DNA of 62,670 bases, counting the filler, from Parachlamydiales bacterium (GTDB taxonomy: Bacteria > Chlamydiota > Chlamydiia > Chlamydiales > Parachlamydiaceae), in the NCBI GenBank assembly GCA_020051075.1. It is 4 parts of 4 records of this genome, joined end to end, with 100 filler letters (N's around TTAATTAATTAA, not from the genome) between each part and the next. Parts side by side here need not be neighbours in the genome. Positions count along the whole stretch, not along the records: positions 25,012 to 35,429 come from JAGVJP010000077.1; 3 more parts are not named here. One strand, 5' to 3'. Shown one piece after another: positions 32,983 to 35,168 of the stretch. A model generated the notes under the pieces. It had not been told where the DNA came from. It saw nothing but the letters and a program-made list of their open reading frames with translations, and ran no database searches. Every line of letters starts with the position of its first letter. Position 1 is the first letter of the stretch. Made by a program: the position numbers and the translations under genes.

Positions 32983-34506
32983 ATGAGAAATATTCTGTTA
33001 TATTTAAGTTTGTGTTTAATTCCCCTCTCCGTACCCCTTGAGGCTGCTGTCGCTGCTTGCCCCCTCCATTCAGAAGAAATACACAAAATTCGAAGAACAG
33101 CCTGTGACTCTCTTGTTGAAGCGCATAAGTTGACTGGGGATATTGTTGCATCTATCGTCGTCACAACCGAAGACATGGCATGGAATTCAGTAAAACAAAG
33201 CTCAACCTACACCGATTTTTCTAAAACTTTCCAGGGAGGGATCGACCACTGCAATAAAAAAGGGAAATTTTTAGCTTCTCGTCGTCTCTACAGAGGGTTT
33301 GATGATGTAGGGAATCTCTTTATTTGCCTGTACGACAACTGCATTCTCAATCATCATAATTATCGCTCGGTATTTGAAAGAGGTAAAATTCATTTCGACA
33401 GAGGAAACATCGAAAAATGCTTGGTTGACATGACCGATCTCATCGATGCGGGAATGGCTGACGATCTCTTGAAAGATGTCAAACCAGCTGATTTATTGAT
33501 TACGAAAGCTCAAGCTCTGCTGGAGATCGGAGAATATGAGAAAGCGATAGAAGCATTATCCGATGCAATCAAAAAAGATCCAAAAAATAAAACGGCCTAC
33601 TTTCATCGCGCTAACGCCTATTTTGAAACAGGAAACTTTGACGAAGCTCTCAAAGATTATTTGGCATCTGACAAAGGGAAGACGATACCTAAATCAAGTT
33701 TCTTACCATCCACAGCTTTTGTTGAGTCACTTGTCAAGAGTTCTTGTCGCGGAGCAGCAGATGCTGCCGTCGATTTTGTTCCCTCGATGTGCAGTTCAGC
33801 TTACGGTCTAAGTGCGACCCTCTGGAACCATGCTCTTCATCCAATTGATTCTACCAAAAATTTTGCAAACGCCTGCTACGAAATGGGTGAATGTTTTGTT
33901 GACTTCTGCGGCGATCTAAACGCAGAAAAAATCGAAGGGTATGTGGATGAGTTGAAGGTTCTTTATGAACGTTATGATCAACTAAGCGATAGTGAGAAAG
34001 GCGAGCTCATCGGTTATACGGTTGGTAAATATGGGACAGACATTTTCATAGGGTCAGCTCTTATGAAAGGGGTCGCAGCCTATCGCAACCTTAAAACGGC
34101 TAATACGATCTGTAATTTAGAGGCAATGGCGATCTCAAACGCAAATAAAGAAGCTGTTATCGCTTCTTCTATGCAACATGCAGCAGAACGAGAGGCTTAT
34201 TTTAAAAATGTAAAAATAGAATGGGGTAAACAAGATAAACATATTATTGGCAAACGTAATTATCAGGTTGGAAAAAGTATTCTTGAACATGAAGATCCAG
34301 ACAGGTTATTAAAAAGTCATGCCGGAACAGGAAAACGTGCCAAAGGTTCATTTGGCGAGCCGGGCTATCAAGAAATTGTAGATTTTGGCGAAATTATTGG
34401 CTACAATGTTTCTGAACAAACTCAAATTAAGACACCTACAACTTGGGGGGAAATCCACTATTCTAAAAATGGAGCTCATATTGTACCTACATGGCCAAGA
34501 AAATGA
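32983..34506 (+). CDS. Signal peptide + TPR + C-terminal Ntox50-type polymorphic toxin (putative RNase)
   Basis: TPR motifs (GEYEKAIEALSDAIKKDPKNKTAYFHRANAY) and a C-terminal KQDKH...EIVDFGEIIG...IHYSKNGAHIVP domain. Confidence 0.82.
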   Translation: MRNILLYLSLCLIPLSVPLEAAVAACPLHSEEIHKIRRTACDSLVEAHKLTGDIVASIVVTTEDMAWNSVKQSSTYTDFSKTFQGGIDHCNKKGKFLASRRLYRGFDDVGNLFICLYDNCILNHHNYRSVFERGKIHFDRGNIEKCLVDMTDLIDAGMADDLLKDVKPADLLITKAQALLEIGEYEKAIEALSDAIKKDPKNKTAYFHRANAYFETGNFDEALKDYLASDKGKTIPKSSFLPSTAFVESLVKSSCRGAADAAVDFVPSMCSSAYGLSATLWNHALHPIDSTKNFANACYEMGECFVDFCGDLNAEKIEGYVDELKVLYERYDQLSDSEKGELIGYTVGKYGTDIFIGSALMKGVAAYRNLKTANTICNLEAMAISNANKEAVIASSMQHAAEREAYFKNVKIEWGKQDKHIIGKRNYQVGKSILEHEDPDRLLKSHAGTGKRAKGSFGEPGYQEIVDFGEIIGYNVSEQTQIKTPTTWGEIHYSKNGAHIVPTWPRK

Positions 34507-35168
34507 ATTTATTTATCCTAAAAAACACTCTCCAGCCAACAGAGGCGAATGCCTTAGAAGTGATAACTCCTTTAGGTGTTCTTTCTTTTGATTGTACATT
34601 GGCGAAAAAATCGATTCAGGATATCCCTCCAATCAGAACCGAAATGGATAATTCCCACACATTGATCTCCTATTGGCTCTTTGAAGATTGTGTAGTGGAG
34701 TTTTTGAGATTGAATTTCAATCCTAAAATACCAGTTGGGATGAAGGTTGATCAGTGCATGTGTGGAATTTGGAGAGTCAAAGCATTGAAAGAAGTCAGCT
34801 GTCACTTCAGCTGTTACTTGGCAACCAATTTAGAAGGATCAGTCGAAACAGGAGAGAGTTTAAACGCGCAGTCATTCGAAGACGACCATGTGATCTTGAC
34901 CATTGGAACTGAAGATGAAGAATGCTTTAAATACCGAGCTCGATCAGATCGTTGGTTTCCTAGTCGTTTAAAGTCAGATATCGAACCAGACCAGGTAAAA
35001 TATTTGCCACATGGGATCAGTATTAACTTGCCTAACTTACTAGGAGGTGAAGTATTGCAAACACACTTTAATTGTGCATGGTCTTCGAAGGACAATCAGG
35101 AAATTTCAACGTGGTTTGCAGTAGATGAAGATCCATTTGAAATCCTGAAGGAATCTAACATGAGTTGA
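34503..35168 (+). CDS. Putative cognate immunity protein
   Basis: ATGA overlap with the toxin stop codon. Acidic, with no signal peptide. Confidence 0.6.
   Translation: MNLFILKNTLQPTEANALEVITPLGVLSFDCTLAKKSIQDIPPIRTEMDNSHTLISYWLFEDCVVEFLRLNFNPKIPVGMKVDQCMCGIWRVKALKEVSCHFSCYLATNLEGSVETGESLNAQSFEDDHVILTIGTEDEECFKYRARSDRWFPSRLKSDIEPDQVKYLPHGISINLPNLLGGEVLQTHFNCAWSSKDNQEISTWFAVDEDPFEILKESNMS

Follow-up and report, generated by a model that had tools for sequence, protein, structure and literature searches.

Ntox50 toxin domains have been characterised in two systems, MafB/MafI of Neisseria and YxiD/YxxD of Bacillus subtilis. According to the accessible parts of the two papers, the C-terminal tip of MafB2 (MafB2-CT; Protein Data Bank (PDB) entry 8HHJ) has demonstrated ribonuclease (RNase) activity and its active site is blocked by MafI2 (PMC9970974), and YxiD (9V8I) is a metal-dependent tRNase that requires K446, H447, H521, K524 and H528, cuts tRNAs of several species and is blocked at its active site by YxxD (PMC12700104). 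The fold is named RNase A-like in the former paper and BECR in the latter. Ntox50 is also listed among MuF toxin domains in the available part of PMC5576092. Both the broad class of polymorphic toxins exported by Sec and the presence of Ntox50 in chlamydiae were on record by 2012: what is accessible of that survey (PMC3482391) includes tetratricopeptide repeats (TPRs) among the repeats of Sec-exported toxins (Table 1), places chlamydiae within the range of Ntox50 and gives Neisseria, Microscilla and Amoebophilus as lineages with N-terminal domains of their own; the same part names no immunity gene for Ntox50 and describes no chlamydial trunk domain. Here we analyse a toxin-like gene and its downstream neighbour in a Parachlamydiales bacterium (assembly GCA_020051075.1). 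They lie in a 62,670-nt stretch of joined contigs (the window), on the contig that spans window positions 25012-35429.

The locus consists of P0001, a toxin gene of 507 aa (32983..34506, plus strand; open reading frame (ORF) translation, Pfam), and P0002, a probable cognate immunity gene of 221 aa (34503..35168, plus strand; labelled 'ImmB' here). With a probability of about 0.72, we read the pair as a polymorphic toxin-immunity cassette of two genes, from a family specific to Chlamydiota, that is directed against other bacteria and most likely against rival chlamydiae. An earlier note on this DNA had proposed an undescribed delivery class; the listing of Sec-exported TPR toxins and chlamydial Ntox50 in the accessible part of PMC3482391 removes that novelty. 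What appears to be new is the chlamydial trunk family and, probably, an immunity family. Neither was found described in the mostly open-access literature, although Additional file 1 of PMC3482391 may list some members, and some members of the trunk family bear the database label 'polymorphic toxin type 50 domain-containing protein'. For the open question of competition among intracellular chlamydiae, or between them and co-infecting bacteria, this family offers a candidate.

As in MafB/MafI, described in the accessible part of PMC9970974, a probable signal peptide, a lineage-specific N-terminal region and a swappable C-terminal toxin are followed directly by the immunity gene; the Ntox50 tip is the same, and the usual partner in the chlamydial family is MafI2-like. 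Unlike MafB, the chlamydial family has TPRs and a variable Cys-rich N-terminus, and its cassettes are scattered rather than gathered in islands; this locus further differs from MafB2/MafI2 in an apparently different immunity fold. The MafB domain DUF1020 (PF06255) was neither among the 25 families listed of the 29 Pfam families for P0001 nor among the 20 families matched by 83 trunk members. The language-model resemblance of P0001 to MafB is weak (0.83-0.86), and cross-locus BLASTP at 26 loci found no MafA-like upstream gene. The family would work like MafB/MafI but without these hallmarks of MafB. With the tRNase YxiD, P0001 shares the Ntox50 tip and five matching residues, but YxiD is a predicted type VII secretion system substrate, and YxxD is small and Sm-like where P0002 is a 221-aa beta-supersandwich (available part of PMC12700104). 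The Sec- or type II-exported toxins with MAFB-N, Microscilla-N or APD1/APD2 domains combine a signal peptide, a lineage-restricted domain and a variable C-terminus, so far as PMC3482391 is accessible; the chlamydial family probably has the same layout, but with an N-terminal region that varies too. Rhs repeats and LXG/WXG, MuF and haemagglutinin domains are absent from the Pfam families listed for P0001 and from its 22 NCBIfam matches.

A chlamydial toxin family with exchangeable tips

The family is defined by a conserved helical trunk, or pre-toxin region, which in P0001 spans aa 229-408 (33667..34206, plus strand). A trunk-only search (query aa 228-408) gave matches in 164 of 401 Chlamydiota genomes, and a trunk profile (E up to 1e-8) in 168 of 400 scored genomes and 104 of 212 genera. 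One chlamydial family (f4) has the trunk in none of its 29 scored genomes, and neighbouring families reach 40-60%. Outside Chlamydiota a single marginal match (E = 8e-4, with a stop) appeared among the 151 genomes searched from one further phylum; the plasmid and phage collections searched gave no match.

Trunk ORFs were picked mainly by score from about 312 matches. Examination of 133 ORFs in 125 loci left 121 once 12 truncated, interrupted or open-ended ones had been excluded. The 121 fall into 11 tip clusters, one of which (L179) is a fragment split off from another, so that there are ten tip classes. Ntox50 is carried by 82 ORFs, a class without a Pfam match by 15, a weakly Ntox35-like class by 10 and a further unnamed class by 4; three classes have 2 members each (one of them DUF6883), and LHH, DUF4258 and an unnamed tip occur once. 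A downstream ORF starts at -30 to +60 nt in 119 of the 121, and these downstream genes form 11 clusters, each tied to a single tip class (no p-value is given for the pairing, since relatives are not independent). Two loci of one genome, L001 and L002, share 416 identical codons, after which both the tip and the downstream gene are different; assembly could mis-pair their flanks, yet both tips are present on one trunk. Identity to the present locus in the trunk does not correlate with identity to it in the tip (rho -0.19, n = 74). Given the ten tip classes, the tip-specific partners and the L001/L002 swap, the trunk-bearing genes are a real polymorphic toxin family. Comparison of the loci shows that tips and immunity genes have been swapped jointly, the recombination falling either inside the tip or where trunk and tip meet; modular exchange, the identity of the tip and the coupling of the two genes are all shown in this way.

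The earlier note had suggested looking for swapped C-termini, and the trunk homologues do have a variable C-terminus. Whole-protein searches gave the opposite impression, with Ntox50 on all but one of the best 100 matches and on 47 of 50 in a second search. Such searches favour close relatives, and the invariant C-terminus that they suggested was overturned by the trunk-only searches. Four DNA runs returned only short near-identical pieces, uninformative on tip swaps.

The tip of P0001 (aa 409-507; 34207..34506, plus strand) is identified by Pfam, PDB sequence matches and fold. The motifs quoted in the earlier note (KQxKH, DFGxxIG and IHYSKxGxHIVP) are all in the translation, and the Ntox50 profile (PF15542) is matched over its full length (1-92) at aa 412-502, with E = 7.3e-27 and 94.4 bits against a cut-off of 22.2. 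The tip matches MafB2-CT (8HHJ_B, E = 1.6e-9) and YxiD-CT (9V8I_B, E = 4.3e-7) in sequence, and its AlphaFold model (P0001 mean predicted local distance difference test score (pLDDT) 90.7) matches 9v8i_B with Z 15.2, root mean square deviation (rmsd) 2.4, 97 residues aligned and 40% identity, and MafB2-CT with Z 13.3, rmsd 1.9 and 90 residues aligned. The five catalytic or binding residues of YxiD, in the order given above, align with K419, H420, H492, K495 and H499, all intact, and these also align with their MafB2 counterparts. Its homology to YxiD and MafB2 predicts that the tip cleaves RNA; the earlier description of Ntox50 as a predicted RNase is out of date, YxiD and MafB2 having already been shown to be RNases.

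Upstream of the trunk, P0001 begins with a probable Sec signal peptide (aa 1 to about 21-24; 32983..33054, plus strand), called by a simple hydrophobicity-and-charge heuristic rather than by SignalP, with the cleavage site placed by A-x-A patterns. The same heuristic called 70 of 100 long homologues signal-bearing, against 0 of 126 P0002 homologues and 2 of 1215 internal windows. There follows a Cys-containing region (aa 25-126; 33055..33360, plus strand), helical in the model, which among the 100 homologues falls into four main unrelated groups (31, 26, 25 and 12 members) and 6 others. This variable region may be the receptor-binding or anchoring part. The earlier note had seen a Cys-rich region; the cysteines are there (13), but they are spread over aa 11-377 rather than forming one region, and the tip has none. 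Across the family, mean Cys per 100 aa is 3.6 in the N-terminal region, 3.0 in the trunk and 0.24 in the tip.

The TPR region (aa 127-228; 33361..33666, plus strand) is supported by Pfam matches at aa 169-228, the model and a fold search. The TPRs of the earlier note are real but amount to only about two to three repeats, and nothing ties them to delivery, so that its 'TPR-delivered' finds no support; the conserved hallmark of the family is the Gly-rich helical trunk. Two Gly/Ala-rich, low-charge stretches of the trunk (about aa 245-285 and 342-362) have a moderate hydrophobicity, below transmembrane grade. No known identity could be assigned to the trunk, which had no convincing Pfam or PDB match and gave low-complexity matches to designed helices only; kinship with LXG/PT-TG proteins was likewise rejected, no similarity to an LXG/PT-TG Ntox50 toxin being found. 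TPRs dominate the matches of the whole-model fold search, which barely probes the trunk, and a new trunk fold is therefore not claimed. Language-model features of the trunk resemble EndoU- and MafB-type pre-toxin regions (0.83-0.91, few features in common), which is a lead only.

The tip classes at L091/L104/L172 (15 loci), L174/L176/L178/L180, L052/L088, L171/L182 and L170 lack a convincing match in Pfam, and every one is coupled to a small gene of its own. These are candidate new toxin-immunity pairs, several Pfam-less classes with predicted partners thus coming out of the trunk family. At L059 (G244:C5) a stretch of 9 kb contains three tandem trunk genes; two have DUF6883 tips and DUF4926 partners, and the third has Ntox50. 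A 1402-aa gene, Rhs-repeat-like by eye, stands directly behind a trunk-Ntox50/MafI2-like cassette at L003:4161-8369.

P0002 as the probable immunity partner

The stop codon of P0001 and the start of P0002 share the sequence ATGA at 34503-34506, as the earlier note had observed; an in-frame ATG at 34491 could serve P0002 as an alternative start. The usual partner of the family's Ntox50 tips is different: a family of about 100 aa, homologous to MafI2 (8HHJ_A, E = 6.8e-6), stands behind 76 of the 82, frequently as tandem copies, between which tip remnants sometimes lie. P0002 homologues occupy the same position behind 5 of the 82, this locus included, and one tip has no called ORF. Many loci have stacked immunity copies and tip remnants downstream; nine long downstream ORFs (about 260-280 aa, as at L053:471-1247, L055, L058 and L042) consist of two MafI2-like domains and a tip remnant, the L053 ORF enclosing an Ntox50 C-terminal remnant. 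The present genome (99.9% complete) has one trunk, one tip and one P0002, and no MafI2-like gene was matched in it.

Searched from its own side, the P0002 family gave matches in 18 of 400 Chlamydiota genomes, 14 of them near full length. Nine of the 14 have the gene directly behind a tip or tip remnant, and three behind the MafI2-like gene of a cassette; two of the four genomes with fragments only have them adjoining cassette pieces. Among nine metagenome loci, one of which duplicates a genome locus, five are direct, two in second position and two unlinked. Several homologues are preceded by only the last 10-40 codons of a toxin. This is a broad family, for which 718 representatives were matched at E up to 1e-3; named members occur in Bacillota, Atlas clusters are commonest in Actinomycetota, and Bacteroidota yielded one copy, in 1 of 301 genomes. 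It was not found in the viral contigs, plasmids and phages searched.

P0002 itself has no Pfam or NCBIfam match at E up to 1, and its profile matches no PDB sequence at E up to 5, MafI2 and YxxD included. A known identity for the family was sought and rejected, Pfam giving one weak match among 119 members, and NCBIfam and the PDB sequences none. Its model (pLDDT 97.5) is a beta-supersandwich of the kind seen at the N-terminus of GH65/GH94 enzymes; it aligns with 7fe3_A over 189 residues (Z 15.0, rmsd 3.1, 11% identity). The top fold matches listed are N-terminal beta-sandwiches of this type, and MafI2 and YxxD are absent from that list. A fold in common with carbohydrate enzymes says nothing of the function of P0002.

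The predicted complex of the tip with P0002 scores 0.89, against 0.17 for the best of 3 controls; the runs share at least 92% of their contacts, with a partner pLDDT of at least 92. The mark used for this score was attained by 116 of 157 solved pairs and by 2 of 215 mismatched ones, a rough calibration since own alignments were used. No P0002-like partner was found among solved Ntox50 complexes, which makes it less likely that the score stems from a memorised complex. In the model, the P0002 loop 113-119 and W204/F205 cover K419, H420, H492, K495 and H499, so that P0002 is predicted to plug the active site of the tip. G117 is conserved in 115, W204 in 113 and E118 in 92 of 119 homologues, and the acidic P0002 (isoelectric point (pI) 4.7) faces a basic tip (pI 9.3).

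On the strength of its position, equivalent to that of the MafI2-like partner, its linkage to tips, the lack of a MafI2-like gene here and the predicted complex, P0002 is probably the cognate immunity protein, of an unnamed family. The unnamed immunity family of the earlier note is to this extent well supported as a candidate, but most members of the toxin family use the known MafI2-like gene. P0002 would be a third, structurally distinct candidate inhibitor of Ntox50 RNases, which suggests a likely function for several hundred unannotated proteins.

Proposed mechanism and competing explanations

For export, uptake and target we infer the following course. Sec would export the toxin to the periplasm, a well-supported step, and disulfides could form there in the Cys-containing N-terminal region and trunk. 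The toxin would reach the surface or exterior through a secretin channel, in vesicles or by lysis, a route that we leave open. The variable N-terminal region or the TPRs may then bind the target, the Gly-rich trunk helping the tip across membranes. In the target cytoplasm the tip would, by homology to YxiD and MafB2, cut RNA, probably tRNA, and translation would stop. The co-translated acidic P0002 would bind the tip 1:1 and block its active site through the G117-E118 loop and W204; given the genomic coupling and the predicted complex, the producer and its siblings would be protected. Five secretin-like matches occur in this genome, each under the GspD cut-off: two tandem pairs of unusually long genes (frames of 900-1200 aa; G000:C121:2688-7807 and C57:4227-9346) and a fifth copy.

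The interbacterial reading is built on sequence comparison and a predicted complex, and several observations weigh against it. Delivery is its weak part. Cross-locus BLASTP of the nearest upstream ORFs at 26 loci gave no match that would mark a conserved export or anchoring gene, so the cassette appears to lack a MafA- or CdiB-like partner; a 19-residue hydropathy of 1.6 is attained by 1 of 83 trunk members; and chlamydiae live in separate inclusions, with little obvious contact. On the immunity side, interface columns are barely more conserved than the rest (0.45 against 0.39). No toxin lies near the P0002 homologue in 2 of the 14 genomes and 2 of the 9 metagenome loci, and the single Bacteroidota copy has no Ntox50 or trunk match within 15 kb. 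In a quick tree just 5 of 7 P0002-linked tips cluster (SH-aLRT 81), so that they are not one clade, and tips related to them pair with the MafI2-like gene.

The tip might instead be a host-directed effector that cuts host RNA in the inclusion or host cytosol, the downstream protein merely averting self-poisoning before export. The three ATP/ADP-translocase genes of this genome make an intracellular lifestyle likely, as the earlier note had presumed, and TPRs are frequent in host-interacting proteins; both suit an effector. So do the tRNAs of several species cut by YxiD (accessible part of PMC12700104) and the Sec-exported effectors with variable C-termini of the amoeba symbiont Amoebophilus (PMC3482391, in the part available). 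We nevertheless consider an effector unlikely: each tip class has its own coupled partner, extra and orphan immunity genes persist, a pattern consistent with attack by other strains, and the nameable tips, Ntox50 and LHH, are domains typical of toxins used between bacteria. In the accessible part of PMC3482391, moreover, the deubiquitinase-type toxins of amoeba symbionts that are predicted to act on the host are without immunity genes. There is a smaller chance that the toxin is real and P0002 a hitch-hiker, protection being due to export alone or to a gene missing from the assembly. Its enzyme-like fold (7fe3_A), the absence of immunity proteins among the fold matches listed, the breadth of its family, its occurrence away from toxins and its occasional second place behind a MafI2-like gene would be explained in that way. 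The ATGA coupling, the retention of P0002 with the last codons of toxins that are otherwise gone, the lack of a MafI2-like gene in this genome and the predicted active-site plug (0.89 against 0.17) argue that it is no passenger. Least probable, in our judgement, is a selfish or defensive cassette that acts within its producer, by addiction or abortive infection, and is no weapon. Patchy presence, unrelated insertion sites, nearby pieces of insertion sequences (ISs) and flanking repeats would suit such an element, but the signal-like N-termini of the homologues (70 of 100 by the heuristic), the cysteines in trunk and not tip, and the lack of matches among the phage or plasmid records searched do not, and a long conserved trunk would be superfluous for an intracellular toxin.

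A wider version of the interbacterial reading, to which we give somewhat less than even odds, is a phylum-wide and hitherto undescribed weapon of environmental chlamydiae, modular at both ends, in which an exchangeable N-terminal region picks the target, the conserved TPRs and helical trunk take the cargo through membranes without a dedicated partner gene, and an exchangeable tip kills. With it an obligate intracellular bacterium could keep rival strains and other infecting bacteria out of a host cell that they share, the competition inside a host that the earlier note had envisaged, and symbiont-mediated defence of amoebae would gain a candidate mechanism. In the available part of PMC6520448, polymorphic toxin domains in Protochlamydia are left without an assigned role; the mechanism of defence against Legionella is given there as unknown, with such domains as candidates. 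On the same wider view, P0002 would found a widespread immunity family on a carbohydrate-enzyme-like beta-supersandwich. Present in about two in five sampled chlamydial genomes, the trunk family offers a clonable candidate for chlamydial competition.

Repeats and neighbouring genes

The cassette lies between two copies of a palindromic repeat, found by a genome motif search, on its left (32674..32778) and right (35173..35269). The element consists of tandem short units with inverted copies around a spacer of 25-45 nt; it forms 49 motif clusters genome-wide, has no Rfam match at this locus and is like repetitive extragenic palindromic (REP) elements or miniature inverted-repeat transposable elements (MITEs). 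With such a spread the flanking palindromes are not specific to the cassette, and we rejected them as its dedicated ends. To the right, at 35289..35335 (plus strand), is a 47-nt remnant of a toxin-stop/immunity-start junction, 87% identical, the only such remnant in a genome whose relatives have tandem immunity copies and tip remnants. It is cut off near the contig end by a second repeat family (35335-35429), which truncates the immunity-gene remnant and has about ten other copies in this genome, several at contig ends; possibly it is an IS end. Upstream on the same contig, at 26611-27039, a 142-aa gene with a C-terminal helix-turn-helix and an antitoxin-like N-terminus is one that we take to be HicB-like.

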